Positions 2,323-21,628 of a DNA stretch of 25,202 nucleotides are shown in pieces (positions within the stretch are counted from its first letter, which is position 1; the number at the start of each line of letters is the position of its first letter). The stretch is from Bacillota bacterium (GTDB lineage Bacteria; Bacillota; Clostridia; Lachnospirales; Anaerotignaceae). The position numbers and the translations under genes were made by a program. The notes below the pieces were generated by a model. It searched no databases. It saw only the letters and a list, made by a program, of their open reading frames with translations, and was not told the DNA's origin. Location: the NCBI GenBank assembly GCA_017547125.1, contig JAFYQL010000173.1, forward strand, positions 1-25,202, in the 5' to 3' direction.

Positions 2323-2808
2323 ATGCTTAGATTAGACATTAATCTGGTGTTTACCATTCTTAACGTTTTGATACTCTACTTCCTTATGAAGAAGTTTTTG
2401 TTCAAACCTGTTAATGGTGTTATCGCCAAAAGAGAAGAAGAAATTCAGAAAAAACTTTCAGAGGCAGAAGTGGCAAAACAGCAGGCTGCAAGAGTAAATG
2501 AAGAATGTGCAGCAGCGGTTGAAAGCGCAAAAGAAGAAGCTGAAGCCATTATTGCTGAAGCAAAAAATAAAGGCAGAATGGAATACGAACGTATTTTAAG
2601 CACTGCAAATGAAGATGCTGCAAAGAGAATGCAGAAGGCAGAAGAAATGATTGCTGAAGAAAAAGAAAAATCTTTACGCAATATGGAAAAAGAAATCGAA
2701 GCTCTTGTTATGACAGCGGCTGCAAAGGTTGTTGGCGAAAATGTTTCAGTTGAAAGCAACAAGAGTTTTTATGATGAATTTATTGCAGAAATGGGTGAAG
2801 ACAAGTGA
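2323..2808 (+). CDS. atpF: F0F1 ATP synthase subunit b
   Basis: N-terminal TM helix followed by FLFKPV and a long charged Ala/Glu/Lys helical region; GGAGG SD. Confidence 0.93.
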   Translation: MLRLDINLVFTILNVLILYFLMKKFLFKPVNGVIAKREEEIQKKLSEAEVAKQQAARVNEECAAAVESAKEEAEAIIAEAKNKGRMEYERILSTANEDAAKRMQKAEEMIAEEKEKSLRNMEKEIEALVMTAAAKVVGENVSVESNKSFYDEFIAEMGEDK

Positions 2809-4652
2809 TACAGTCAGCAAATGATAATGCAAAGGTAATGGAGCAGCTGTCAGTATCCGATTTACTCCCACAGTTAGAAGAAGCATTACGTGCAAAAAGT
2901 AAGCTTTCAGATTTAAAAGTGGAGATTATCTGCGTTGTTCCTCCTGATGAAGAACAGCTTGAAAAAATAAAAGCTTTTATAAAGAAAAAATATGAAACAG
3001 ACAATTTTGAAGTTGTTGTCAAGGAAGACAAGAGCCTTGTCGGCGGCTTTGTAATCCGTATTGGCAACGAAGAATATGACTGGAGTATGAAGGGCAGACT
3101 TCAGAAAATTCAGCAGAACATGGTTGACAGAGCCCAGACAAAAAATGCTGAAGAAACTGAAGGAATTATCTCAATACTTAAAACAGAAATTGAAGAATCT
3201 GTTTTTGATACAAGCAAAAAAGAAGTTGGTTTTGTTACATACGTTGGTGACGGTATTGCTACAATCCAGGGTATTGAACACGCAATGTACGGCGAAATCA
3301 TCATCTTTGATACAGGCGTAAGAGGCATGGTACAGGATATCAGAAGAAACGAAATTGGTGTTATCCTTTTTGGCCGTGACGCAGGCATCAAAGAAGGCAC
3401 AAGAGTTATCAGAACAGAAAAAATGGCAGGTGTGCCTGTAGGCGAAGAATTCCTTGGAAGAGTTGTTAATGCACTTGGTGACCCTATTGACGGCAAGGGT
3501 GCAGTTACAGCTTTTGGTTACAGACCTATCGAAAACAGAGCCCCTGGTATTATTGACAGAAAAGCAGTTACTGTTCCTATGGAAACAGGTATTATAGCCA
3601 TTGACTCAATGTTCCCTATCGGCCGAGGCCAGAGAGAACTTATCATTGGTAACCGTCAGACAGGTAAAACAAGTATCGCTATGGAAGCTATCTTAAACCA
3701 GAAGGGCAAAGGCGTAATCTGTGTTTATGTAGCTATTGGTCAGAAAGCATCAAGTGTTGCAAAACAGGTTCGTATGCTTGAAGAAAACGGCGCACTTGAC
3801 TACACAATTGTTGTATCTGCTCTTGCAAGTGATACTGCATCACTTCAGTACATTGCTCCTTATGCAGGTACATCAATGGCAGAATACTTTATGTATCAGG
3901 GCAAGGACGTTCTTATTGTTTATGACGACCTTTCAAAGCATGCGGTTGCATACAGGGCCCTTTCACTCTTGCTTGAACGTTCTCCGGGACGTGAAGCTTA
4001 TCCTGGTGACGTATTCTACCTTCACTCAAGACTTCTTGAAAGAAGTGCAAGACTTGCTCCTGAGGCGGGCGGAGGCTCAATCACAGCCCTTCCTATTATC
4101 GAAACTCAGGCAAGTGACGTATCAGCATATATCCCTACAAACGTAATTTCTATTACAGACGGTCAGATATATCTTGAAAGCTCATTGTTCTTTGCAGGCC
4201 AGAGACCTGCTGTAAACGTAGGTTTATCAGTATCACGAGTTGGTGGTAATGCACAGACAAAGGCAATGAAAAAAGCAGCCGGAAGTATCCGTATTGACCT
4301 TGCTCAGTACAGAGAAATGGAAATTTTCACACAGTTCAGTTCTGAACTTGATGATGCAACAAAAGAACAGTTGGTTTATGGCCAGGGCCTTATGGAATTA
4401 TTAAAACAGCCTTTGGCAAGACCACTTTCACTTGCTGAACAGGTAATTACACTTTGCGCAGCAAACAAGAAATTGTTCCTTGATGTTCCAAAGAACAAAA
4501 TCAAACCTTTCCAGATGTATATGCTGGAATATGTTAAAGAAAACTATAGCGAAATCATTCGTGAACTGCAGGAAGAAAAGGTTCTTACAGAAGACCTTAC
4601 AGAAAATATCATCAAAGCAGTTGAGGATGCAAAGAAATGTTATCTGAAATAA
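2805..4652 (+). CDS. atpA: F0F1 ATP synthase subunit alpha with N-terminally fused delta (OSCP) C-terminal domain
   Basis: aa ~37-104 match the delta CTD (EDKSLVGGFVIRIGNEEYDWSMKGRL). From aa ~117 it is alpha (VGDGIA, PIGRGQRELIIG, PGREAYPGDVFYLHSRLLER). GTG overlaps the atpF stop (GTGA); one uninterrupted 615 aa frame. Confidence 0.93.
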   Translation: MIQSANDNAKVMEQLSVSDLLPQLEEALRAKSKLSDLKVEIICVVPPDEEQLEKIKAFIKKKYETDNFEVVVKEDKSLVGGFVIRIGNEEYDWSMKGRLQKIQQNMVDRAQTKNAEETEGIISILKTEIEESVFDTSKKEVGFVTYVGDGIATIQGIEHAMYGEIIIFDTGVRGMVQDIRRNEIGVILFGRDAGIKEGTRVIRTEKMAGVPVGEEFLGRVVNALGDPIDGKGAVTAFGYRPIENRAPGIIDRKAVTVPMETGIIAIDSMFPIGRGQRELIIGNRQTGKTSIAMEAILNQKGKGVICVYVAIGQKASSVAKQVRMLEENGALDYTIVVSALASDTASLQYIAPYAGTSMAEYFMYQGKDVLIVYDDLSKHAVAYRALSLLLERSPGREAYPGDVFYLHSRLLERSARLAPEAGGGSITALPIIETQASDVSAYIPTNVISITDGQIYLESSLFFAGQRPAVNVGLSVSRVGGNAQTKAMKKAAGSIRIDLAQYREMEIFTQFSSELDDATKEQLVYGQGLMELLKQPLARPLSLAEQVITLCAANKKLFLDVPKNKIKPFQMYMLEYVKENYSEIIRELQEEKVLTEDLTENIIKAVEDAKKCYLK

Positions 4653-7364: not shown

Positions 7365-7387
7365 TAGTGTTGATAAAATACTATATA

Positions 7388-7426
7388 AACAAAAAGACGA
7401 TGTTGAAGGCATCGTCTTTTTTGTTT
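7388..7426 (+). terminator. Intrinsic terminator of the atp operon
   Basis: AAACAAAAAGACGATG-ttgaagg-CATCGTCTTTTTTGTTT. Confidence 0.88.
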
Positions 7427-7447
7427 GCAAAATAAGCTGAAAATGTG

Positions 7448-7476
7448 GTAAAGCGACATGCCATGCAGGAATAGTA
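7448..7476 (+). promoter_or_regulatory. Possible sporulation sigma (SigF/SigG-like) promoter
   Basis: GTAAA-N15-GGAATAGTA resembles the GnATA-N15-GGnAnAmTA type consensus; imperfect match. Confidence 0.3.
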
Positions 7477-7497
7477 TATCTTGGAGGTGTTTTGTAT

Positions 7498-8253
7498 ATG
7501 AGGATACATAAAAAACTGCCTGTTATTATTTCTGTGGCTGCGGTGCTTCTTATGGGTGCTGCAAAGCCTGCGGCAATGAAGGTTTTTTCTTCCTTTGCAG
7601 AGGCGGAAAGGAAACTGCCGATTTACTGCGTGGAAACGGAAGAAAAGAATGTTGCCATAAGTTTTGATGCTGCGTGGGGTGCAGATGATACCGATGAGCT
7701 TTTGAAAATACTGAGAGAAAATGATGTGAAGACTACGTTTTTTATGTGTGGATACTGGGTGGATGACTATCCCGAAGAGGTAAAGAAAATAGCCGAAGAA
7801 GGTCACGATTTGGGCAATCATTCGGCAACACATCCGCATATGAGTCAGCTGAGCAAACAACAGATAAAAGACGAACTTATGAAGACGGAAGAAAAGGTTT
7901 TTAATCTTACAGGATATGATATGGATTTGTTCAGACCGCCCTTTGGAGAATACAACAACAATGTTATTGAGGCGGCAGAAGAATGCGGGTACTATACTGT
8001 GCAGTGGGATGTTGATAGCCTTGACTGGAAAAAGCTTGGAGTGGAGCACGAAATAAACCAGGTGCTTAATCATAAGCATCTTGGAAACGGCTCAATTATA
8101 CTTTTCCATAATGATGCGGAGTATACACCGCAGGCGCTTGATACCATAATAAAAGGCTTGAAAGAAAAAGGCTTTGAAATAGTGCCGATAAGTGAACTTA
8201 TCATACGGGAAAACTATTGTATAGACCACGAAGGAAGGCAGAAAAGCAACTGA
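7498..8253 (+). CDS. pdaB: Polysaccharide deacetylase, sporulation PdaB-like (CE4/NodB domain)
   Basis: N-terminal TM/signal; ISFDAAWG, TFFMCGYW, GNHSATHPHM, FRPPFGEYN, WDVDSLDW and GSIILFHND motifs; GGAGGT SD 9 nt before ATG 7498. The pdaB symbol is tentative. Confidence 0.85.
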   Translation: MRIHKKLPVIISVAAVLLMGAAKPAAMKVFSSFAEAERKLPIYCVETEEKNVAISFDAAWGADDTDELLKILRENDVKTTFFMCGYWVDDYPEEVKKIAEEGHDLGNHSATHPHMSQLSKQQIKDELMKTEEKVFNLTGYDMDLFRPPFGEYNNNVIEAAEECGYYTVQWDVDSLDWKKLGVEHEINQVLNHKHLGNGSIILFHNDAEYTPQALDTIIKGLKEKGFEIVPISELIIRENYCIDHEGRQKSN

Positions 8254-8300: not shown

Positions 8301-8387
8301 TTACATAAAAAGTAAGTTATATACTAGCGAAAAGAAAATATGGTAATTTTGTAACTTTTCAACTGACTTTTTTGGATACTATGCGCA

Positions 8388-8416
8388 TTGAAGAAAAACG
8401 CACAATATACTATAAT
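8388..8416 (+). promoter_or_regulatory. Sigma-A promoter of PFOR-1
   Basis: TTGAAG (8388-8393)-N17-TATAAT (8411-8416). Confidence 0.8.
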
Positions 8417-8461
8417 ATTATTCTGGGTGAAATAGAAATAAACAATAAAGGAGAATGTAAT

Positions 8462-11400
8462 ATGTCTAAAATTATGAAAACAATGGACGGTAACGAAGCA
8501 GCTGCATACGCATCCTACGCGTTTACAGAAGTTGCTGGTATTTTCCCAATTACACCATCATCACCAATGGCTGAAAAGACAGATGATTGGGCCGCAAACG
8601 GCAAAAAGAACATCTTTGGACAGCCTGTAAAAGTTATTGAAATGCAGTCAGAAGCAGGTGCTGCAGGTACAGTACACGGCTCACTTGCATCAGGTGCACT
8701 CACAACTACATATACAGCAAGCCAGGGTCTTCTTCTTATGATCCCTAACATGTACAAAATCGCCGGAGAACTTCTTCCAAGCGTATTCCACGTAAGTGCC
8801 AGAGCACTTGCATCACACGCTCTTTCAATCTTCGGTGACCACAGTGACGTTATGGCTTGCCGTCAGACAGGTTTTGCACTTCTTGCATCAGCATCTGTTC
8901 AGGAAGTTATGGACCTTGGTGCAGTAGCACACTTAAGCACAATCAAAGGCAGAGTTCCTTTCCTTCATTTCTTCGATGGTTTCAGAACATCACACGAAAT
9001 TCAGAAAATCGAATGCCTTGACTTCGATGATCTTGCAAATATGGTAGATATGGATGCAGTTAACTCATTCAAGAGAAATGCGCTTAACCCAGAACACCCT
9101 GTTCTCAGAGGTTCAGCTCAGAACCCTGACATCTTCTTCCAGGCAAGAGAAAGCTGCAACAGATACTACGAAGATATCGTAGGTGTTTGCGAAGACTACA
9201 TGAAACAGATGAGCGCCCTCACAGGCAGAGACTATCAGCTTTTCAACTACTATGGTGCACCAGATGCTGAAAGAGTAGTTGTTGCTATGGGTTCAGTTTG
9301 TGAAGCTCTTGAAGAAACAATTGATTACCTTTGCGCTAAAGGTGAAAAAGTTGGTATGGTTAAAGTTCACCTTTACAGACCATTCTCAGCTAAACACCTT
9401 ATTAACGCAATTCCTGAAACATGCCAGAAGATTGCAGTTCTCGACAGAACAAAAGAACCTGGCGCACTTGGCGAACCACTTTACCAGGATGTATGTACAG
9501 CTATGTTTGAAGCTAAAGTACAGCCTATGGTAATCGGCGGCCGTTATGGTCTTGGTTCAAAAGACGTAACACCAGCACAGCTTATCGCTGTTTACGAAAA
9601 CCTTAAAGCAGACAAGCCTCTTAACCACTTCACAATCGGTATCGTTGACGACGTTACAAAGCTTTCACTCGAAGTTGGCAAAGAAGTTAATGTTACAGAA
9701 GGTGACGGCACAATCAGCTGCAAGTTCTGGGGTCTTGGCTCAGACGGTACAGTAGGTGCTAACAAAAACTCAATCAAAATCATCGGTGACCACACAGATA
9801 TGTATGCTCAGGCTTACTTCGCTTATGACTCAAAGAAATCAGGCGGTGTAACAATGAGTAACCTTCGTTTTGGTAAAAAACCAATCCGTTCAACATACGT
9901 TGTTAAAACAGCAAACTTTGTTGCTTGTCACAAACAGGAATATGTTAACCTTTATGACATGCATTCAGAACTTCTTCCAGGCGGTACATTCCTTCTTAAC
10001 ACAGAATGGACAGCAGAAGAACTTGATGCTAAACTTCCTGCAGCAATGAAGAAATACTTTGCAGAAAACGACATTAAGTTATACATCATCAACGGTACTC
10101 AGATTGCTAAAGAAATTGGTCTTGGCAACAGAGTTAACTCAGTACTTCAGGCTGCATTCTTCAAGCTTACAGGTATCATTCCTATTGAAGAAGCTGTTGG
10201 CTACATGAAGGCTGCTATCAAGAAGAGCTACGGCAAGAAGGGTGACACAATCCTTAACATGAACTATGCTGCTGTTGACCAGGGTGTTGACAAGGCTGTT
10301 CAGGTTGAAATTCCTGCTGCTTGGGCAAATGCTGAAGATACAGCAGTTGCTGAAGAAAGAGAAGTTCCTGAATTTGTTAAGGCAGTAGTTCAGCCTATGA
10401 ATGCTCAGAAGGGTGACTTACTTCCTGTTAGTGCATTTGCCGGCAGAGAAGATGGTACATTCCCAGCAGGTACAGCTGCTTACGAAAAGAGAGGCGTTGC
10501 TGTTGACCTTCCTGAATGGGATGTTACAAAGTGTATTCAGTGTAACCAGTGTGCATATGTATGTCCACACGCTGCTATCAGACCATTCCTTCTTACAGAA
10601 GAAGAAGTTGTAGCAGCTCCAGAAAGCTTTGCAACAAAGAAAGCAATCGGCAAAGGTCTTGAAGCATACCAGTACAGAATGCAGGTATCAGCTTTAGACT
10701 GTCTTGGTTGCGGCAGCTGTGCAGTAGTATGTCCATCAAAAGAAAAAGCACTTGTTATGAAACCAGCAGCTACACAGGAAAACGAAGCAGCTAACTGGGA
10801 TTATGCAATGACACTTTCAGTTAAAGAAAATGTTATGGCTAAAGACAGCGTTAAGGGCAGCCAGTTTGTACAGCCACTTCTTGAATTCTCAGGCGCATGT
10901 GCAGGCTGTGGCGAAACACCATACGCTAAACTTATCACTCAGCTTTTCGGTGACAGAATGTATGTTGCAAATGCTACAGGTTGTTCATCAATCTGGGGCG
11001 GCAGCGCACCTTCAACACCATATACAGTAAACCACAAGGGTCACGGTCCGGCTTGGGCTAACTCACTTTTCGAAGACAACGCAGAATACGGCTTTGGTAT
11101 GGCTATGGGCGTTAAGAAAATGAGAGAAGACCTTAAGGTTAGACTTGAAGAACTTAAAGAAATCCAGGGCTGCAGCATGATGGCTGAAACAGTTGACGCT
11201 TGGATTGACACAATGAAAGACGGTGAAGCTAATAAGTCTGCTACTGCTGACCTTATTACACTTCTTGAAAACTATAACGGCGAAAACGCAGAAGCAAAAG
11301 CAATCGTTGACTATGTTCTTGAAAACAAAGACCAGCTTGCTAAGAAGAGCCAGTGGATCTTTGGCGGTGACGGTTGGGCATATGACATCGGTTACGGCGG

Positions 11401-11995
11401 TCTTGACCACGTACTTGCTTCAGGCGAAGACGTAAACGTATTTGTATTTGACACAGAAGTTTACTCAAATACAGGCGGTCAGGCTTCTAAGGCTACACCA
11501 GCAGGTGCAGTTGCTCAGTTCGCAGCAAGCGGCAAGAGAATCAAGAAGAAAGACCTTGGTATGATGGCTATGAGTTATGGTTATGTATACGTAGCACAGG
11601 TTGCTATGGGCGCTAACCCAGCACAGCTTGTTAAGGCTCTTATCGAAGCTGAAAAATATGATGGTCCATCACTTGTTATCGCTTACGCTCCATGTATCAA
11701 CCACGGTATCAGAGGCGGTATGAGCGGTGCTCAGACAGAAATTAAGAGAGCTGTTGAAGCAGGTTACTGGCATATGTACAGATTCAACCCAGACCTCAAG
11801 AAGGAAGGTAAGAATCCATTTACACTTGACTCAACTCCAGAACCACAGGGCAACTTCCAGGAATTCATCAGAAGCGAAGTTCGTTATACATCACTTATGA
11901 GAACATTCCCAGAAATCGCTGAAGAACTCTTTGCTAAAGCAGAAGAAAATGCTAAAGACAGACTTGAAAGCTACAAGAAACTTGCAGCTCAGTAA
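8462..11995 (+). CDS. nifJ: Pyruvate:ferredoxin (flavodoxin) oxidoreductase, single-chain, housekeeping copy (PFOR-1)
   Basis: MDGNEAAA, PITPSS, two CxxCxxCxxxCP motifs, CAGCGE, GCSSIWGG, GDGWAYDIG, EVYSNTGGQ. True start is ATG 8462 with AAGGAG SD; the track start lies upstream of the promoter. Confidence 0.96.
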   Translation: MSKIMKTMDGNEAAAYASYAFTEVAGIFPITPSSPMAEKTDDWAANGKKNIFGQPVKVIEMQSEAGAAGTVHGSLASGALTTTYTASQGLLLMIPNMYKIAGELLPSVFHVSARALASHALSIFGDHSDVMACRQTGFALLASASVQEVMDLGAVAHLSTIKGRVPFLHFFDGFRTSHEIQKIECLDFDDLANMVDMDAVNSFKRNALNPEHPVLRGSAQNPDIFFQARESCNRYYEDIVGVCEDYMKQMSALTGRDYQLFNYYGAPDAERVVVAMGSVCEALEETIDYLCAKGEKVGMVKVHLYRPFSAKHLINAIPETCQKIAVLDRTKEPGALGEPLYQDVCTAMFEAKVQPMVIGGRYGLGSKDVTPAQLIAVYENLKADKPLNHFTIGIVDDVTKLSLEVGKEVNVTEGDGTISCKFWGLGSDGTVGANKNSIKIIGDHTDMYAQAYFAYDSKKSGGVTMSNLRFGKKPIRSTYVVKTANFVACHKQEYVNLYDMHSELLPGGTFLLNTEWTAEELDAKLPAAMKKYFAENDIKLYIINGTQIAKEIGLGNRVNSVLQAAFFKLTGIIPIEEAVGYMKAAIKKSYGKKGDTILNMNYAAVDQGVDKAVQVEIPAAWANAEDTAVAEEREVPEFVKAVVQPMNAQKGDLLPVSAFAGREDGTFPAGTAAYEKRGVAVDLPEWDVTKCIQCNQCAYVCPHAAIRPFLLTEEEVVAAPESFATKKAIGKGLEAYQYRMQVSALDCLGCGSCAVVCPSKEKALVMKPAATQENEAANWDYAMTLSVKENVMAKDSVKGSQFVQPLLEFSGACAGCGETPYAKLITQLFGDRMYVANATGCSSIWGGSAPSTPYTVNHKGHGPAWANSLFEDNAEYGFGMAMGVKKMREDLKVRLEELKEIQGCSMMAETVDAWIDTMKDGEANKSATADLITLLENYNGENAEAKAIVDYVLENKDQLAKKSQWIFGGDGWAYDIGYGGLDHVLASGEDVNVFVFDTEVYSNTGGQASKATPAGAVAQFAASGKRIKKKDLGMMAMSYGYVYVAQVAMGANPAQLVKALIEAEKYDGPSLVIAYAPCINHGIRGGMSGAQTEIKRAVEAGYWHMYRFNPDLKKEGKNPFTLDSTPEPQGNFQEFIRSEVRYTSLMRTFPEIAEELFAKAEENAKDRLESYKKLAAQ

Positions 11996-13803: not shown

Positions 13804-13836
13804 AAAAAGAGACACGGAAATTTTCCGTATCTCTTT
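13804..13836 (-). terminator. Intrinsic terminator of the T-box operon
   Basis: Minus strand AAAGAGATACGGAA-aat-TTCCGTGTCTCTTTTT; one pair is a U-G wobble only on the minus strand. Confidence 0.85.
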
Positions 13837-13850
13837 GTTTTTGAGGAGAA

Positions 13851-16800
13851 TTATAATTCTTCCATATGTTTATATTTTTCGTATCTTGTGCCTGAGTCTT
13901 CTTTTGCAGCCTTGAAAAGAGTTTCTGCATATTCAGGGAAAGTACGTTTTAATGCAGAGTATCTTGTTTCGCCGTCAAGGAATTCTTCGTAGTCCATAGT
14001 TGGCTTTTTGCTATCCACTGTAAGTGGTTTTTCTGCATTAGGGTTGTAGCGGTAAAGTGTCCAGTAGCCTGAATCGACTGCACGTTTCATTTCGTTCTGT
14101 ACGTTGCTCATGCCAGCTTTGATGCCGTGTGTTACACAAGGTGTGTATGCAACGATAACAGATGGGCCTTTGTGCTGTTCAGCCTCGTGAAGAGCCTTGA
14201 TAAGCTGATTTGGGTCTGCACCCATAGCAACCTGTGCCACATATACATTTCCGTATGTCTGGAAAATGGCGCCAAGCTCTTTCTTACGGCTTCTCTTGCC
14301 GGCTGAAGCAAACTGTGCTACTGCGCCGAGAGGAGTTGCCTTTGAGCTCTGTCCGCCTGTATTTGAGTAAACTTCAGTATCTACAACAAATACGTTGATG
14401 TCTTCGCCGGATGCAACTACGTGGTCAAGACCGCCAAAGCCGATGTCATATGCCCAGCCGTCGCCGCCGAACATCCAGAAGCATTTTTTGGCAAGCTGAT
14501 CTTTTCTTTCAAGTATCTTTTTTGCAAGAGGAGAAGCTACTGCTTCAAGCTCAGCAATAAGTTCATCTGTTGCCTGACGTGAAGCATCAAAGTTGTCAAA
14601 TGCATCAAGCCAGAGTTTAGCAGCTTCACTGCCGGTTTCAGCCATATATTCTTCTACAAGGGCTTTCTGTGCAAGTCTCTGCTGTTTTACTGAAAGGAAC
14701 ATACCAAGTTCAAGCTCGGCATTGTTTTCGAAAAGTGAGTTTGTCCATGCAGGGCCAAAGCCACGTTTGTTTGTTGTGTAAGGAATGCCAGGCATTGGTG
14801 AGCCCCAGGCCTGTGAACAACCTGTTGCGTTTGCCCAGTAAACTCTGTCGCCAAAAAGCTGAGTAAGAAGCTTGGCATATGGTGTTTCGCCGCAGCCTGC
14901 ACAAGCAGCACTGAACTCAATAAGAGGCTGGCGGAACTGGCTGCCTTTGATGCTATATACATTGAAAAGGTCGCCTTTGTCAGAAATTGTGAGACCATAG
15001 TTCCAAAGCTTCTTGCTTTCTTCTGTAAGGTTGGCATCTTCCATAGTGATTGCATTTTCCTTTGCAGGGCAGCAAGCTACACAGCTGCCGCAACCTGTAC
15101 AGTCAAAGCTTGAAATCTGCATTGTAAAGTGAAGTCCTTTGGCTGCAGCACCCATAGCAGGAACTGTTTCAAAGCCTTCAGGAGCATTTGCTTTTTCTTC
15201 GTCGTTTAAGAGATATGGACGGATAACTGCGTGCGGACAAACGAGAGCACACTTGTTGCACTGGATACATTTTGAAGCATCCCATACAGGAACTTTGAGT
15301 GCGATACCACGTTTTTCAAATGCAGTAAGACCCATATCAATACGTCCGTCTTCATAGTTTTTGAATGCACTTACAGGAAGGTCATCGCCTTTCTGTCTGT
15401 TGATAGGCTGAAGAAGGTTTTTAACAACGTCAGGAAGATTGTTGTCAGCAGCAGCTTCACCGCTTTCAGCCTGTGCCCATGAAGAAGGAACATTAACCTT
15501 AACAAGCTCTGTAGCGCCTGCATCAATTGCCGCAACGTTTCTTGCAATAACGTCATCGCCTTTTGCGAAGTATGTTTTGCGGGTAGCATCTTTAATCATT
15601 CCAAGAGCGTCTTCAGTAGGAATAACCTGCATGAGAGCAAAGAATGATGCCTGAAGTACTGTGTTTGTGTGACTGCCAAGGCCTAAATCCTGAGCAATCT
15701 TGTTTGCATCTATCATGTAGAACTGAATGTTCTTTTCTGCAATCTGTTTTCTTACCTTCGCAGGAATATGGTCTTCAAGTTCGCTTTCTTTCCAGCTGCA
15801 GTTAAGAAGGAATGTTCCGCCTTCAACTATTTCGTCAATGATATCATACTGTGTTATGTAACTCTGGTTGTGGCATGCAACAAAGTCAGCCTGTTTTACA
15901 TAGTATGAGCTTGTGATTGGCTTGTCGCTGAAACGAAGGTGTGATTTTGTAACACCAAATGATTTTTTGGCATCATATTCAAAATAAGCCTGAGCAAATT
16001 TGTCTGTGTTGTCGTTGATGATACGAACTGTGTTGTGGTTTGCACCAACAGTGCCGTCACCGCCAAGACCCCAGAATTTGCATCTTACAAGGCCGTTTGT
16101 ATTTTCTGTATAAGGCTTTAATGGTAATGAAAGATGAGTAACGTCATCGTTGATACCGATAGTAAAGCTTCGGATTGGGTTTGGAGAAGCAAGGTTTTCA
16201 AATACAGCCGCAATCTGTGATGGGTCTGTATCCTTTGAACTTAAACCGTAGCGTCCGCCGATAACCTTGATCTGACGGTCGTTATTCATAAGTACAGAGC
16301 AGATATCTTCAAATAATGGTTCGCCTGCGCTGCCCATAGCCTTGCATCTGTCAAGAACGGCAATTCTTTCAACAGTTTCAGGAAGAGCCTGAAGGAAATG
16401 CTTTGCAGAGAAAGGTCTGTATAAGTGTACCTGAAGGAAGCCAACCTTTTTGCCTTCGTTAACAAGTTTTTCTGTAACATCACAGATAACACCGCTGGCT
16501 GAACCCATAGCGATAACCACATCAGTTGCATCAGGTGCACCATAGTAGTTGAATGTATGGTATTCACGGCCTGTGATTTTTGAAATTTCTCCAAGATATT
16601 TTTCAACGATATCAGGAAGGTTGTTGTAGAATGTGTTGTTTGCTTCTCTAACCTGGAAGTACACGTCACCGTTCTGAACAGTGTTACGAAGTGTAGGGTG
16701 TTCAGGGTTGAGTGAGCCGTCACGGAATGCTTTTAAAGCATCTTTGTCGATGAGGCTGCCAACTTTATCAAGGTCAGGAAGCTCAATTTTGTTGATTTCG

Positions 16801-17333
16801 TGGCTTGTTCTAAAACCATCAAAGAAGTGCATGAAAGGAATGCGTCCTTCGATAGCACTTAAGTGAGCAACAGGAGCAAGGTCTGCAACTTCCTGTACGC
16901 TGCCTGATGAAATCATAGCAAAGCCTGTCTGACGGCATGCCATAACGTCACTGTGGTCGCCGAAAATACTCATAGCGTGTGTACCAACTGTACGTGATGC
17001 CACATGAAGAACAGCAGGAAGTCTTTCCCCTGCAATTCTGTAAAGCACAGGGACCATAAGCATAAGTCCCTGTGAAGATGTATAAGATGTTGCAAGTGAG
17101 CCAGCCTGAAGAGCACCGTGCACTGCTGTGATAGCGCCTGCTTCAGACTGCATTTCTGTTAATGTTACTGTCTGGCCGAATACATTTGTTCTGCCTTTGG
17201 CTGACCATGCGTCTGTAAGGCCTGCCATAGGAGATGATGGTGTGATTGGGTAAATAGCAGCTACTTCTGTAAATGGATATGCCATATATGCAGCAGCTTC
17301 GTTACCGTCCATTGTTACATATTTTTTGGACAT
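13851..17333 (-). CDS. nifJ: Second single-chain 2-oxoacid:ferredoxin oxidoreductase (NifJ/PFOR family, PFOR-2), substrate possibly not pyruvate
   Basis: All cofactor motifs present (YPITPSS, CIQCNKC..CP, CTGCGSC..CP, CAGCGE, GDGWAYDIG, EVYSNTGGQ). ATG 17333 is 6 nt after GAGGTG. Confidence 0.93.
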   Translation of the reverse strand: MSKKYVTMDGNEAAAYMAYPFTEVAAIYPITPSSPMAGLTDAWSAKGRTNVFGQTVTLTEMQSEAGAITAVHGALQAGSLATSYTSSQGLMLMVPVLYRIAGERLPAVLHVASRTVGTHAMSIFGDHSDVMACRQTGFAMISSGSVQEVADLAPVAHLSAIEGRIPFMHFFDGFRTSHEINKIELPDLDKVGSLIDKDALKAFRDGSLNPEHPTLRNTVQNGDVYFQVREANNTFYNNLPDIVEKYLGEISKITGREYHTFNYYGAPDATDVVIAMGSASGVICDVTEKLVNEGKKVGFLQVHLYRPFSAKHFLQALPETVERIAVLDRCKAMGSAGEPLFEDICSVLMNNDRQIKVIGGRYGLSSKDTDPSQIAAVFENLASPNPIRSFTIGINDDVTHLSLPLKPYTENTNGLVRCKFWGLGGDGTVGANHNTVRIINDNTDKFAQAYFEYDAKKSFGVTKSHLRFSDKPITSSYYVKQADFVACHNQSYITQYDIIDEIVEGGTFLLNCSWKESELEDHIPAKVRKQIAEKNIQFYMIDANKIAQDLGLGSHTNTVLQASFFALMQVIPTEDALGMIKDATRKTYFAKGDDVIARNVAAIDAGATELVKVNVPSSWAQAESGEAAADNNLPDVVKNLLQPINRQKGDDLPVSAFKNYEDGRIDMGLTAFEKRGIALKVPVWDASKCIQCNKCALVCPHAVIRPYLLNDEEKANAPEGFETVPAMGAAAKGLHFTMQISSFDCTGCGSCVACCPAKENAITMEDANLTEESKKLWNYGLTISDKGDLFNVYSIKGSQFRQPLIEFSAACAGCGETPYAKLLTQLFGDRVYWANATGCSQAWGSPMPGIPYTTNKRGFGPAWTNSLFENNAELELGMFLSVKQQRLAQKALVEEYMAETGSEAAKLWLDAFDNFDASRQATDELIAELEAVASPLAKKILERKDQLAKKCFWMFGGDGWAYDIGFGGLDHVVASGEDINVFVVDTEVYSNTGGQSSKATPLGAVAQFASAGKRSRKKELGAIFQTYGNVYVAQVAMGADPNQLIKALHEAEQHKGPSVIVAYTPCVTHGIKAGMSNVQNEMKRAVDSGYWTLYRYNPNAEKPLTVDSKKPTMDYEEFLDGETRYSALKRTFPEYAETLFKAAKEDSGTRYEKYKHMEEL

Positions 17334-17350
17334 GTTTGTCACCTCGTTAA

Positions 17351-19867
17351 TTAGTTGTTGCTTTTTGCTGTGTCAATACCTGCAGCGCCGACTAAACCAA
17401 GCTTGTTGGCATATTCTTCGCGCATCTTATATTTTAACACTTTTCCAGCTGCATTCATAGGGAATGAGTCGACAAAGTCAATGTATTTAGGAACTTTATG
17501 TCTTGCCATGCTTGCGGCGATGTAGTCGTGCATTTCTTCAACTGTCATGCTGCAGCCTTCCTTAAGGATAACGCAGGCCATAGCTTCTTCGCCGTAGCGC
17601 TTGTCAGGAACACCGATAACCTGTACGTCACGTACTGATGGGTGTGTATAGATAAATTCTTCAATTTCTTTTGGATAAATGTTTTCGCCGCCGCGGATAA
17701 TCATATCTTTAAGACGACCTGTGATACGGAATGTACCGTCAGCTTCTCTGCAGGCAAGGTCGCCTGAGTGGAGCCATCCGTCTGCGTCGATAGTGTCACG
17801 GGTTGCTTCAGGCATCTTGTAGTAGCCTTTCATAATGTTGTAACCGCGTGAGCAGAATTCGCCGTTTACGCCGTCAGGAACAACTTCGCCTGTTTCTGGG
17901 TCAATAACCTTACATTCAACGTGTGGGAAGTTATAGCCAACAGTGTTTGTACGAAGATCAAGAGGATCTTCCCAAGCTGACATTGTGCTGCCCGGAGATG
18001 ATTCTGTTTGGCCGTAAACACTTACGATACCTGTCATATTCATTTCGTTAGGGTCTGCAGCACGTCTCATAAGGTCAGGAGGACAGCCGGCGCCGGCCAT
18101 AATACCTGTACGCATGTATGAGAAGTTAGTCTTTCTGTAGTCTTCGTGGTTGAACATAGCTATGAACATAGTAGGCACACCGTTGAAGCAAGTGATTCTT
18201 TCCTGATTGATGCAGGCAAGTGATGATTTTGCTGAGAAGTATGGAAGCGGACAAACTGTTGCACCGTGTGTGAGAGATGCAGTCATTGAAAGTACCATAC
18301 CGAAGCAGTGGAACATAGGAACCTGAATCATCATACGGTCTGCAGTTGAAAGTCCCATTCTGTCACCGATACATTTACCGTTGTTAACTACGTTGTAGTG
18401 TGTAAGCATAACGCCTTTAGGGAAACCTGTTGTACCTGATGTGTACTGCATATTACAAACATCGTCAGGTCTTACCTTTGCTGCCATTCTGTTAAGTTCT
18501 TCAGGGGCAACAAGGTCTGCTCTTTCCATAGCTTCTTCAAATGTGAGGCAGCCAGGCTGCTTGAAGCCAACTGTAATTACATTACGAAGGAATGGAAGGC
18601 GTTTGCAGTGAAGAGGCTTGCCAGGTTTGCTTGTGGCAATTTCAGGACAAAGCTCATTGATAATCTGTTTGTAGTTTGAGTCAAGACAAGACTCAATCAT
18701 AATAAGTGTATGAGTATCTGACTGGCGGAAAAGGTAGTCAGCTTCGTGAATCTTGTATGCTGTGTTTACAGTAACAAGTACGGCACCGATTTTTGTTGTT
18801 GCCCAGAAAGCAATATACCATGCAGGTACGTTTGTTGCCCAAACTGATACCTTATTGCCTGCTTTTACGCCAAGAGAGATAAGTGCTCTTGCAAAGTTAT
18901 CAACGTCTTCACGGAATTCTTCGTATGTACGTACATAGTCAAGTGTTGTGTACTTGAATGCATACTGGTCAGGGAATTCTTCAACCATACGGTCAAGAAC
19001 CTGTGAGAATGTGAGGTTGATAAGTTCGTCTTTTTTCCAAACATACTGGCCTGTGCCGTCGTGGTTAGGATAAAGAACTTTCTTTTTGCCGCGTGTCTTT
19101 TCGAAACGGCTCATATAGTTTACAAAGTGAGGGAAAATAACTTCGTATTCAGGAAGGTCTTCCATCCACTCAATTTTCCATTCAAGAGAAATATAACCGT
19201 CATAGTCGATTGATGAAAGCGCTCTCATCATATCATCGATAGGAAGAGTACCTTCGCCTATAAGGTTGTATGTGTCTTTGTCGTCTGAGTCACGGAAATG
19301 AACGTGTTTTACATAAGCACCAAGGTTTTTGATAGTTGCATCTGCGCTTTCGTTAAAGTCGCGATATGGGTGGTGAATATCCCATAATGCAGCAAGCTGG
19401 TCGCATGCAAAGCTGTCCATAAGTGAACGGAGACGTGATGTGTCAGCATAAATACCGCTTGTTTTTACAAGAATTGTTACGTCTGCATCTTCTGCATCGT
19501 CAAGAAGCTCAGCTATTCTTTCGCGAACGAGGTCTTCGTTTTCGTGAAGAGCAACAACTGTAACGTATGGAACCTGCATCTGTTTTGCAGTCTGAATAAG
19601 TTCTTTGATGGCAGGAACAAAGTTTTCTTCGTTTGAAGAAAGGTCACAGGATGTATCGAAACAAGGAATAGCAAGTTTCTTTTCTCTGAGCTGACGAGAT
19701 GTTGATGCCATATTATATTTGTGGAAAGGGCCACTGCGTTCTGTTAATTCAGGGAATTTTGGAAGGTTATAAACTTCTATGCCGGCAAAATCCATTGTTT
19801 CGCCAATTTCAAGATATTCATCCCAGTTTAAATGAGCCCAGCCTCTGGTTGAAAATGAAAGTTTCAT
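17351..19867 (-). CDS. AMP-forming acyl-CoA synthetase with N-terminal xylose-isomerase-like TIM-barrel domain
   Basis: C-terminal ~560 aa: YTSGTTGFPKG, PMFHCFG, YGQTE, GWLHSGDL, RLKDMIIRGGENIYP, AGKVLK. N-terminal ~255 aa: FAGIEV, WDIHH, KHVHFRD, GEGTLP, YDGYISLEW. Confidence 0.9.
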   Translation of the reverse strand: MKLSFSTRGWAHLNWDEYLEIGETMDFAGIEVYNLPKFPELTERSGPFHKYNMASTSRQLREKKLAIPCFDTSCDLSSNEENFVPAIKELIQTAKQMQVPYVTVVALHENEDLVRERIAELLDDAEDADVTILVKTSGIYADTSRLRSLMDSFACDQLAALWDIHHPYRDFNESADATIKNLGAYVKHVHFRDSDDKDTYNLIGEGTLPIDDMMRALSSIDYDGYISLEWKIEWMEDLPEYEVIFPHFVNYMSRFEKTRGKKKVLYPNHDGTGQYVWKKDELINLTFSQVLDRMVEEFPDQYAFKYTTLDYVRTYEEFREDVDNFARALISLGVKAGNKVSVWATNVPAWYIAFWATTKIGAVLVTVNTAYKIHEADYLFRQSDTHTLIMIESCLDSNYKQIINELCPEIATSKPGKPLHCKRLPFLRNVITVGFKQPGCLTFEEAMERADLVAPEELNRMAAKVRPDDVCNMQYTSGTTGFPKGVMLTHYNVVNNGKCIGDRMGLSTADRMMIQVPMFHCFGMVLSMTASLTHGATVCPLPYFSAKSSLACINQERITCFNGVPTMFIAMFNHEDYRKTNFSYMRTGIMAGAGCPPDLMRRAADPNEMNMTGIVSVYGQTESSPGSTMSAWEDPLDLRTNTVGYNFPHVECKVIDPETGEVVPDGVNGEFCSRGYNIMKGYYKMPEATRDTIDADGWLHSGDLACREADGTFRITGRLKDMIIRGGENIYPKEIEEFIYTHPSVRDVQVIGVPDKRYGEEAMACVILKEGCSMTVEEMHDYIAASMARHKVPKYIDFVDSFPMNAAGKVLKYKMREEYANKLGLVGAAGIDTAKSNN

Positions 19868-21279
19868 TATACCTCAGCCTCCTCGTAAGTAATCTTATTA
19901 AGTGCGTTGATGTAAGCCTGAATACTTGAGCCTACGATGTCAGTTGATGTACCACGGCCTGAGTAAAGTTTGCCATTGGAACGAAGTTTAACTACAGTTT
20001 CGCCCATAGCTTCGCGGCCTTCTGTTACGGAACGAATCTGGAAATCATCAAGTTCATAATGGCAGCCAAGAATGTTTTCGATAGCAAGGAATGCTGAGTC
20101 GATAGGACCGTCGCCAAGTGCAACGCCTTCAAGCATCTGACCATGTTTTTCAAGCTTCATATGAGCCATTGATGATGATGTGTTGCTTGCTGTGATGTTG
20201 TAGCTGTGAAGAACGTATGTTGAAGGAACCTGCATAGCTGCTGAAGCAACGATTGTATCAAGTTCTCTTGTTGTGATAACGTCTTTTCTTGCGGCGATTT
20301 TCTGGAATGCATCCCAAACCTGTGCGCCGTCTTCTTCGCTTAAGTCATAGCCAAGTTTTTCAACTGATTTAAGTACAGTTGACATATTGTCGTGGCTTGT
20401 AAGTGACATATCTTCTGTAATTTCCTGAACACCATTGTCGAATGGTGAGTTTTTGCTTCTTCTTGTTTCGCACATCCATGAAATCTGTTTGATGATGCGG
20501 TTCATTTCAACTGTGCGTACGCTGCAGTTAACTCCGAATGAGTCGCCTTTTGCAGCAAGAAGACGTGAAACGTGAGGAAGTGATACAGTGTTTATTTGAT
20601 ATGCAGCAGCTTTAATTTCTTTTACGCCGTGTTTGATAGCAGCAACTGCACAGGCATCAGCCATAGCAAGTTCGTTTGAACATGAAAGGCCAAGCACTGC
20701 ATCTTTAAGCTCATCAACATTTGCATAAAGTTCATCAATAAATTCGCCAAGTTCGTCAGGAAGCATAGCACCTGTTGCATCGCATACAGTTACTGTTTTT
20801 GCACCTGCATTGATAGCTGATTTGATAACTTGATATAAAAATGCCTTGTCGCTTCTTGTTGCGTCATCTGCAATAAATTCTACGTCGCTTGTTTTTGCGC
20901 AGCAGGCAGCAATTGTATTTTCAATAGCCTTAAGCATAGCTTCAGGCTTTTTGTTGAAAAGGTATTCCATCTGAACTGGGCTTACAGAAGCACGTACCTG
21001 AAGACGAGGATGTTTAGCCTCTTTAAGTGCATTCCAAGTGATGTCGATGCTTTCTTCAGCAAGCTGAACAGGTACTGCTACGATACTGTTTTTTACTGTT
21101 GAAGCAACTGATTTTATACGTAAAGAATCAATCTTAGGCTGTGTGATAGGTTCAAGCTCAATTACAGAAACGTTTAGTTTATCAAGCAGTTTAGGTATTT
21201 CAATCTTTTCTTTGAAAGAAAGAGTAAATTCTTTTCCGGTCTGTTTCATTGTAATGTCACTGATTCTGATCTGGTCCAT
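19867..21279 (-). CDS. LeuA (2-isopropylmalate synthase)-like protein, predicted catalytically inactive, with intact C-terminal regulatory domain
   Basis: LeuA-like EFIADDATRSD and VCDATGAMLP; regulatory domain GDGPIDSA, EGREAMGE, STDIVGSS. The RDGEQ, HxH and GERxGN motifs are absent. ATG 21279 after AAGAGGTG; the track start lies inside the T-box terminator. Confidence 0.85.
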   Translation of the reverse strand: MDQIRISDITMKQTGKEFTLSFKEKIEIPKLLDKLNVSVIELEPITQPKIDSLRIKSVASTVKNSIVAVPVQLAEESIDITWNALKEAKHPRLQVRASVSPVQMEYLFNKKPEAMLKAIENTIAACCAKTSDVEFIADDATRSDKAFLYQVIKSAINAGAKTVTVCDATGAMLPDELGEFIDELYANVDELKDAVLGLSCSNELAMADACAVAAIKHGVKEIKAAAYQINTVSLPHVSRLLAAKGDSFGVNCSVRTVEMNRIIKQISWMCETRRSKNSPFDNGVQEITEDMSLTSHDNMSTVLKSVEKLGYDLSEEDGAQVWDAFQKIAARKDVITTRELDTIVASAAMQVPSTYVLHSYNITASNTSSSMAHMKLEKHGQMLEGVALGDGPIDSAFLAIENILGCHYELDDFQIRSVTEGREAMGETVVKLRSNGKLYSGRGTSTDIVGSSIQAYINALNKITYEEAEV

Positions 21280-21307: not shown

Positions 21308-21340
21308 TAAAAAAATCCTTGAAGCATTATGCCTCAAGGA
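21308..21340 (-). terminator. T-box attenuator terminator
   Basis: TCCTTGAGGCA-taa-TGCTTCAAGGA-TTTTTTT, mutually exclusive with the antiterminator. Confidence 0.92.
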
Positions 21341-21590
21341 CGAACAATCAAATTCGCGGTACCACCTTGATTACAGCAGCCTTTCAGCATACTGTCTCTC
21401 TCGGACTCGTAAAAGCCCATAGCCTGTAACGGGGCGACCGTACTCCACTACCCAAATGAAAACATTCTTCGCAGAGTCGACTCAGGAGTGAGACTGCAAT
21501 CTTTCTTCCGTACCGATTTTCACCAGCCATCGGCTCTCTGAAACTTTCGTAAAGATGCATAATTCCGTTATAGTCGTTGTGTTTTTAAAA
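21308..21590 (-). promoter_or_regulatory. T-box riboswitch leader, leucine-specific (CUC specifier)
   Basis: Minus strand shows stem I with AGAGAG bulge and GCTGGTGAAA loop, specifier region CTCACTC (21492-21486), stem II, CCGTTA stem IIA/B, stem III, T-box AAGGTGGTACCGCG (21368-21355) with partner CGTCCTT, and an overlapping terminator. Confidence 0.95.
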
Positions 21591-21598
21591 TTGCATTT

Positions 21599-21628
21599 AG
21601 TATAGCACAAAAAAGGGGAAATAGTCAA
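21599..21628 (-). promoter_or_regulatory. Sigma-A promoter of the T-box operon
   Basis: TTGACT-N18-TATACT with extended -10 TGc, directly upstream of stem I. Confidence 0.8.

Follow-up and report, generated by a model that had tools for sequence, protein, structure and literature searches.

A predicted 2-isopropylmalate synthase pseudoenzyme encoded with an acyl-CoA ligase behind a leucine T-box in Clostridia: a possible leucine sensor

The 25,202-nucleotide contig JAFYQL010000173.1 (assembly GCA_017547125.1), from a Bacillota bacterium of the clostridial family Anaerotignaceae and referred to here as the window, carries on its minus strand a gene (19867-21279) for a 470-residue dead homologue of 2-isopropylmalate synthase (LeuA or IPMS) that we named pLeuA. 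Comparison with true LeuAs and with its own family firmly supports reading this sequence as that of a pseudoenzyme for IPMS chemistry. In its operon the gene comes first, behind a leucine T-box, and directly precedes a gene for a TIM barrel fused to an acyl-coenzyme A (CoA) ligase, referred to below as the ligase. At roughly even chances, we read pLeuA as a non-catalytic, leucine-sensing partner of this ligase, in a salvage route that would make leucine by reductive carboxylation, with isovalerate as the acid that the ligase probably activates. This substrate, the binding of leucine by pLeuA, its contact with the ligase and its regulatory effect are all points that we infer.

In place of the canonical DTTLRDGEQ motif, pLeuA has DITMKQTGK at residues 8-16 (21258-21232), and SCSNE at residues 199-203 (20685-20671) aligns with the HCH(D/N)D motif. 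HMMER alignments with the LeuA barrels of Listeria, Cytophaga and Neisseria placed K12 and Q13 opposite the Arg and Asp of RDGEQ. The metal ligands are thus replaced, with Q13 at the position of the Asp and S199 and S201 at those of the two His of HxH(N/D)D, while K12 occupies the position of the substrate-polarising Arg (R80 in the M. tuberculosis enzyme, MtIPMS or MtLeuA) and D138 that of the general-base Glu (MtE218). MAFFT alignment with three true LeuAs (504-510 residues), taken from the distant matches of an exhaustive family search, revealed that pLeuA lacks four residues at GERAGN and, in a second deletion, about 30 residues with which accessory subdomain I and the histidine of HExGIH are lost. 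For the MtIPMS variants R80A, R80K, K79A, N83A, Y410F and E218A, the outcomes given in a review table include destroyed enzymatic activity (PMC10464499); the Lys of pLeuA at the R80-equivalent position compares with R80K in that table.

The same losses recur across the family. Both metal-binding His residues were kept in none of 105 full-length family representatives and the metal-binding Asp in nine, and the GERxGN and HExGIH deletions occurred together in 104. Hypervariable positions comprised the equivalents of MtLeuA R80, D81, H167, Y169, E218, H285 and H287, numbers which we take to be those of the structure papers. Since the catalytic losses are common to the representatives examined, they are neither accidental nor recent. 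HMMER, MAFFT and this survey agree with an earlier note on the window, which had pointed to the two altered motifs (coordinates included) and the missing GERxGN and HESGIH segments as signs that the IPMS catalytic apparatus is gone, and had proposed alignment with true LeuAs as a check.

The gene itself proved as the earlier note had read it with respect to ORF, strand, coordinates, good Shine-Dalgarno sequence and intact frame. The coding sequence runs from 21279 to 19870 with the stop codon at 19869-19867; the ATG has a Shine-Dalgarno sequence (AAGAGGTG) 8 nt upstream, and the stop overlaps the start of the ligase gene as TAATG, indicating translational coupling. An upstream ATG at 21327, which would open a longer open reading frame (ORF), was rejected as the start because it falls within the terminator hairpin of the T-box, in the loop, and close homologues have 470 residues. 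The protein comprises a TIM barrel (residues ~1-250; Pfam HMGL-like PF00682, 1.4e-29), a remnant of the accessory domain (residues 251-344) and a LeuA_dimer regulatory domain (residues 345-470, nucleotides 20247-19870; PF08502, 4.1e-29, profile positions 2-130 of 131), in which GDGPIDSA (389-396), EGREAMGE (420-427) and STDIVGSS (445-452) are retained. Its AlphaFold2 (AF2) model reached a predicted local distance difference test score (pLDDT) of 93.3, and only a loop of the remnant, residues 272-291, was of low confidence (pLDDT 51-59). The modelled barrel superimposed on the LeuA N-domains 3ewb, 3eeg and 3rmj with a template modelling (TM) score of 0.92 and a root-mean-square deviation of 1.5-1.9 A. 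Foldseek returned Brassica methylthioalkylmalate synthase (6e1j) as the top match, with full-length M. tuberculosis LeuA also among the top matches. Every NCBIfam LeuA model matched pLeuA below its curated cut-off, the best being NF002086 (297 versus 532 bits), and TIGR00973 scored 260 bits against a cut-off of 598.7. NCBIfam CimA models matched the barrel only; the LeuA models also matched the C-terminal domain.

The exhaustive search placed pLeuA among homologues of 455-490 residues that form more than 100 clusters at 50% identity, true LeuAs appearing only at about 220 bits; the family is abundant, with 5,796 members in one 90%-identity cluster. We scored 399 genomes of the class, defining carriers by a match of more than 455 bits over about 462 residues and counting by hand from the tables. 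About 78 of these genomes, roughly one in five of the Clostridia species sampled, were carriers, spread over about 20 families, and the frames were intact in them as well as in thousands of metagenome copies. Two orthologue pairs whose synonymous sites were not saturated gave ratios of non-synonymous to synonymous substitution rates (dN/dS) of 0.078 and 0.074; in the same pairs dN/dS was about 0.10 for the barrel and 0.02-0.08 for the regulatory domain. The pair formed by the window and L006, a metagenome assembly locus, was set aside, as its synonymous sites were saturated (pS 0.74) and it gave an upper bound only. pLeuA is under strong purifying selection, which these data firmly support. 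The intact frames and the low dN/dS bear out the earlier note, which had suggested dN/dS as a check and held that the gene does not look like a decaying pseudogene. The notion of a decaying leuA pseudogene, or of a divergent but active IPMS, is already contradicted by the data and retains hardly any probability: it could appeal to the preserved LeuA architecture and to a JGI/IMG name, '2-isopropylmalate synthase', but it faces the intact frames, a dN/dS of 0.07, a family in which no member has both metal His, and the two catalytic segments deleted in all but one of the representatives.

The regulatory domain, whose retention the earlier note had emphasised, is the most conserved part of pLeuA across the family. 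Eight residues are invariant, six of them in this domain (G389, G391, G443, D447, A459 and N461) and two in the barrel (F22 and K111). In the AF2 model G389, G391, G443 and D447 lie just N-terminal to the two helices of the domain. In MtLeuA a pocket at the dimer interface takes up leucine, whose carboxylate is flanked by two helix N-termini (PMC11057210), and the isolated LeuA_dimer domain of CimA is an autonomous, specific amino-acid sensor (PMC13381585). The place of the four invariant Gly and Asp residues corresponds to that of the leucine carboxylate in MtLeuA, which we count in favour of leucine sensing. Searched alone against PDB sequences, the regulatory domain of pLeuA gave no LeuA or CimA match.

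Conservation in the barrel raises another explanation, namely that it has taken on a new role in the same pathway, as a catalyst or a substrate-binding module that does without metal. An acyl-CoA or 2-oxo acid, for instance, might be handled by the family-specific invariant Lys111 together with Glu105 and Tyr106. Such a function would account for the invariant F22 and K111, for P98, E105 and Y106 (each at least 90% conserved) and for the barrel dN/dS of about 0.1. We nevertheless consider it rather improbable, given that the substrate- and metal-site positions 12, 13, 94, 96, 138, 199 and 201 are hypervariable in the family, that the CoA-binding subdomain capping the active site has been deleted, and that M-E-Y is no innovation, having come down from bacterial LeuAs.

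The control region of the gene points to leucine as well. A T-box leader spans 21333..21580 on the minus strand (RF00230, 99.2 bits versus a gathering score of 93, E 4.7e-21); read directly from the sequence, its specifier codon at 21492-21490 is CUC (Leu), followed by A. A terminator hairpin with U-run (21315..21341, minus strand) was found by a terminator scan and consists of 12 pairs followed by TTTTTTTATTT. Upstream, a TG-extended promoter-like site, TTGACT-18-TATACT (21599..21628, minus strand), scored 10/12 in a consensus scan and is a pattern match only. Behind pLeuA the operon continues on the same strand with the ligase (17351..19867; 838 residues), a xylose-isomerase-like TIM barrel fused to an AMP-forming acyl-CoA ligase (Pfam AP_endonuc_2, AMP-binding and AMP-binding_C; PRK12583, 670 bits), and, as third cistron, with PFOR-2, a paralogue of the PFOR-type 2-oxoacid:ferredoxin oxidoreductases (13851..17342; TIGR02176, 1685 bits). 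An intrinsic terminator (13806..13836, minus strand; 14-pair hairpin and T-run right after the PFOR-2 stop) closes the three-gene operon, outside of which lie a sigma-factor gene downstream and gpr upstream. L006 encodes proteins of 83-87% identity and keeps the T-box with all three genes between flanks that are entirely different. Induction of pLeuA by leucine starvation via the T-box is a firmly supported prediction from these sequences.

To place the gene in context, we compared 22 carrier loci (the window, L006 and 20 fetched loci from about 18 families). The TIM::ligase fusion follows pLeuA directly in the window and in 21 of the 21 other loci, with 56-62% identity to the window ligase in the fetched loci and 87% in L006. 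From the side of pLeuA, a functional tie to the ligase is thus firmly supported; the earlier note had proposed that pLeuA probably acts on this translationally coupled gene product. Its second candidate partner, PFOR-2, did not fare as well: it adjoins the pair in the window and L006 only (2/22) and was rejected as a universal partner. The constant adjacency and the translational coupling would also suit a non-sensing scaffold or assembly factor that holds the ligase, and perhaps the oxidoreductase or the aminotransferase, so that isovaleryl-CoA is channelled without ligand control. Such a role is unlikely in our view, although it draws further support from a barrel kept under purifying selection while its active-site positions vary freely, and from the fact that the LeuA regulatory domain doubles as a dimerisation domain (PMC9860122). 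The best-conserved residues of pLeuA lie in the loops before the helix N-termini, that is, at the ligand site of LeuA and not on the general surface; moreover, ligase orthologues manage without pLeuA, and PFOR-2 adjacency is confined to the two loci named.

A T-box precedes pLeuA in 12 of the 22 loci, and all specifiers are leucine codons (CUC in 11, CUG in one). Six loci (L038, L039, L040, L044, L047 and L056) share a different leader that lacks a T-box and lies about 250 nt 5' of the pLeuA start (e.g., L039:560-800 and L047:9395-9640, minus strand). It consists of a promoter, an ORF of 22-46 codons mostly with an LL or LLL run, the 16-nt core AGYGCTRTTWGTYGTG and an intrinsic terminator. No Rfam family matched these leaders. 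The exact AGYGCTRTTWGTYGTG core was found only at this leader, in five genomes, and matches with one mismatch elsewhere occurred at control frequency. This leader may be an undescribed leucine-responsive attenuator.

Carriers differ from other members of the class in the leucine pathway. With the curated cut-off applied, LeuB was found in 8 of the 78 carriers and in 200 of the 321 non-carriers, so that 70/78 carriers lack LeuB versus 38% of non-carriers, and 74/78 carriers had no second LeuA-like match (E <= 1e-40). pLeuA is enriched in genomes missing the isopropylmalate pathway, a result that we regard as firmly supported. In the window genome, the one further HMGL-like match that was characterised, a strong one on contig C59, was considered as a true IPMS and rejected, being a 4-hydroxy-2-oxovalerate aldolase beside acetaldehyde dehydrogenase.

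While pLeuA always stands beside the ligase, the ligase often occurs without pLeuA. Its TIM domain matched 204 of the 399 genomes, many of the matches being fusions of 840-870 residues in non-carriers. In 12 non-carrier loci (L058-L069, e.g. L058:2647-5536), the solitary TIM::ligase was 57-61% identical to that of the window and had no LeuA-like neighbour; it stood directly behind a Leu (CUC) T-box in seven of them, and LeuB was present in 10 of the 12 genomes. Because solitary ligases sit behind a Leu T-box, we regard the ligase as the core of the leucine-responsive function and pLeuA as accessory to it. The occurrence of functional ligases without pLeuA is also what one would expect if pLeuA were a leucine-responsive regulator of some other target (a transporter, the aminotransferase, an oxidoreductase or gene expression) with which the ligase is merely co-regulated, and the loss of de novo leucine synthesis in most carriers might create a genome-wide rather than a ligase-specific need. 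We hold such a target to be improbable: the ligase is the sole constant companion of pLeuA whereas other neighbours vary, and Pfam detected no DNA- or RNA-binding domain in pLeuA.

Phylogenetic trees bear on the origin of the pair. Non-carrier ligases form one supported clade (97/93), so that a single change suffices to explain the carrier label. In the pLeuA tree, rooted on true LeuAs, L054 and then L045 are basal; the same two loci lie nearest to the non-carrier clade in the ligase tree, and the two trees are congruent. The L054 genome retains a true LeuA and LeuB, and the basal pLeuA copy is already catalytically dead. These relationships fit a scenario in which a leuA copy was captured once beside an existing T-box-ligase gene.

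Taken together, the mechanism that we propose is as follows. pLeuA would have arisen once from a bacterial short-form 2-isopropylmalate synthase, keeping the barrel fold and a dimeric domain of the amino-acid-binding type while giving up binding of the catalytic metal and the subdomain with the catalytic His. pLeuA and the TIM::ligase would be made only when uncharged tRNA-Leu builds up and is sensed by the T-box. The ligase would then convert isovalerate to isovaleryl-CoA as the committed step, a 2-oxoacid:ferredoxin oxidoreductase (here presumably PFOR-2) would reductively carboxylate isovaleryl-CoA to 2-oxoisocaproate, and a branched-chain aminotransferase would yield leucine, with pLeuA providing the ligase with fast leucine feedback on top of the T-box. 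The window genome encodes a branched-chain-aminotransferase-like gene and five oxidoreductase alpha domains. In its most specific form, in which pLeuA is a leucine-responsive allosteric subunit of an isovalerate-CoA ligase that was captured once, stripped of catalysis and kept mainly in Clostridia without de novo leucine synthesis, so that feedback moved from the old to the new committed enzyme, we advance the proposal tentatively, at somewhat below even odds.

Several observations weigh against a leucine sensor acting on an isovalerate ligase. The pLeuA barrel is strongly constrained too, and its family-specific invariant residues F22 and K111 leave room for a role of its own. The LeuB co-occurrence counts ignore phylogenetic kinship. 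The window genome, in which we found no LeuB match, no other LeuA and no second LeuA_dimer domain, is only 68% complete. The presence of the ligase without pLeuA in many LeuB-positive genomes indicates that the ligase does not need pLeuA, and carriers and non-carriers have different fixed residues at only 4 of 838 ligase positions, just one of which is in the TIM domain, a pattern that gives no sign of a co-adapted interface. Finally, the PDB relatives of the ligase act on diverse acids, isovalerate being our inferred substrate.

The neighbourhood of the pair offers further hints at its pathway. A class-IV (branched-chain-type) aminotransferase gene directly flanks it in two unrelated lineages, as an ilvE-like gene 5' of pLeuA in L045 and right after the ligase in L047 (4438-5505, minus strand). 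An Amidohydro_2 (PF04909) gene lies 5' of pLeuA in L041 and L043 and recurs beside the pair at L051:4746-5561; this family includes reversible non-oxidative decarboxylases. Near the leucine module, related arrangements were found at L042:2840-5423(-), L048:2897-5514(-), L048:1182-2818(-) and L051:5617-7271(+), where an Ile (AUC) T-box precedes a Cupin_2- or HTH_3-Cupin_2-ligase fusion and a Phe (UUC) T-box precedes a PaaK-like ligase; the L042 locus carries an oxidoreductase alpha-subunit gene downstream of its Ile-T-box ligase. This set of T-box ligases suggests modules for acid-to-amino-acid salvage, each with a sensor-like domain that is either N-terminal or separate. Reductive carboxylation of such acids to amino acids has been described in rumen bacteria, and the route from isovalerate to leucine has been known physiologically since the 1960s. 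Activation of a carboxylic acid under control of the cognate amino acid fits this chemistry, by which isovalerate, 2-methylbutyrate and phenylacetate give Leu, Ile and Phe.

The TIM domain of the ligase (19043-19867, minus strand) was compared across 34 ligases. Near-invariant positions include K135, T136, W162, E173, D193, E205 and W230, among others. H165/H166, H188/H190 and E229, which align with the usual metal ligands, are not conserved, and the domain probably lacks the canonical metal site of its family. Stand-alone TIM homologues of about 275 residues occur in other genomes.

Some features of the window and of the loci stand apart from pLeuA. The small window genome (1.2 Mb assembled, 68% complete) encodes three single-chain PFOR-type paralogues of about 1,170-1,230 residues, at 8372-11995(+) and 13851-17342(-) in the window and on contig C58 of the same assembly (G000), in addition to two separate alpha-subunit genes. 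An ORF of 615 residues at 2805-4652(+) fuses a C-terminal segment of OSCP (ATP synthase delta) to a full alpha subunit, and there is no separate delta gene between atpF and atpG in the window. Between the ATP synthase operon and PFOR-1 lies a 232-residue ORF (7381-8079, minus strand) with no Pfam match. A TwoAYGGAY RNA (RF01731, 52.8 bits) at L060:19-177(-), a non-carrier locus, is unrelated to pLeuA.

Annotation of pLeuA varies. The earlier note had expected automatic pipelines to mislabel it as leuA; this holds for JGI/IMG, which gives a fragment the name quoted above, but not for NCBI, where it is a 'hypothetical protein' and the NCBIfam cut-offs are not reached. Where domains alone led to a 'leuA' label, de novo leucine synthesis would be predicted in error for species most of which are without LeuB, and the abundance of pLeuA gives this weight in metabolic modelling of gut communities, where auxotrophy and cross-feeding are at issue. 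A cluster search of the AlphaFold database with pLeuA returned LeuA-type clusters only, with no separately named cluster among the matches. Full-text searches of the literature gave no description of the family or operon, and a PFOR review is silent on such an operon. If our reading is true, the long-known but genetically unassigned isovalerate-to-leucine route of gut and rumen anaerobes gains its genes and a logic of control, and pLeuA would be a clean bacterial case of an enzyme recycled as the sensor for a pathway that replaces its own.

Among known systems, the closest is short-form LeuA (EC 2.3.3.13; TIGR00973/NF002086; structures 3ewb, 3eeg and 3rmj, and 1sr9/3fig from M. tuberculosis), with which pLeuA shares fold, domain order and the GxGPxDA and GxGxSxDI motifs of the regulatory domain. 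Unlike LeuA, it has the metal-binding Asp, His and His replaced, Lys for Arg, a general-base Glu position that varies in the family and deletions at GERxGN and HExGIH; it scores below every NCBIfam LeuA cut-off and is encoded with a ligase instead of leuBCD. CimA has a regulatory domain of the same family, PF08502, but is catalytic and senses isoleucine. Methylthioalkylmalate synthase (6e1j) is, like pLeuA, a LeuA descendant with a changed role. It kept catalysis and has no regulatory domain, the opposite of pLeuA, which kept the regulatory domain and lost catalysis. The leucine T-box regulons of Firmicutes (ilv-leu, leuS; RF00230) share with pLeuA the leader family and the preference for CUC as specifier; the targets of the pLeuA operon differ from theirs in being a dead LeuA and an acyl-CoA ligase, with neither isopropylmalate enzymes nor a tRNA synthetase. 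A functional parallel may be HisZ, a paralogue of histidyl-tRNA synthetase without its activity, which acts as regulatory subunit in short-form ATP phosphoribosyltransferase, with complex and allostery both established. By analogy, pLeuA, whose fold is unrelated and for which complex formation and allostery are proposed here, would be a second inactive paralogue that stays with the amino acid of its active relatives, as partner of the committed enzyme of a pathway.

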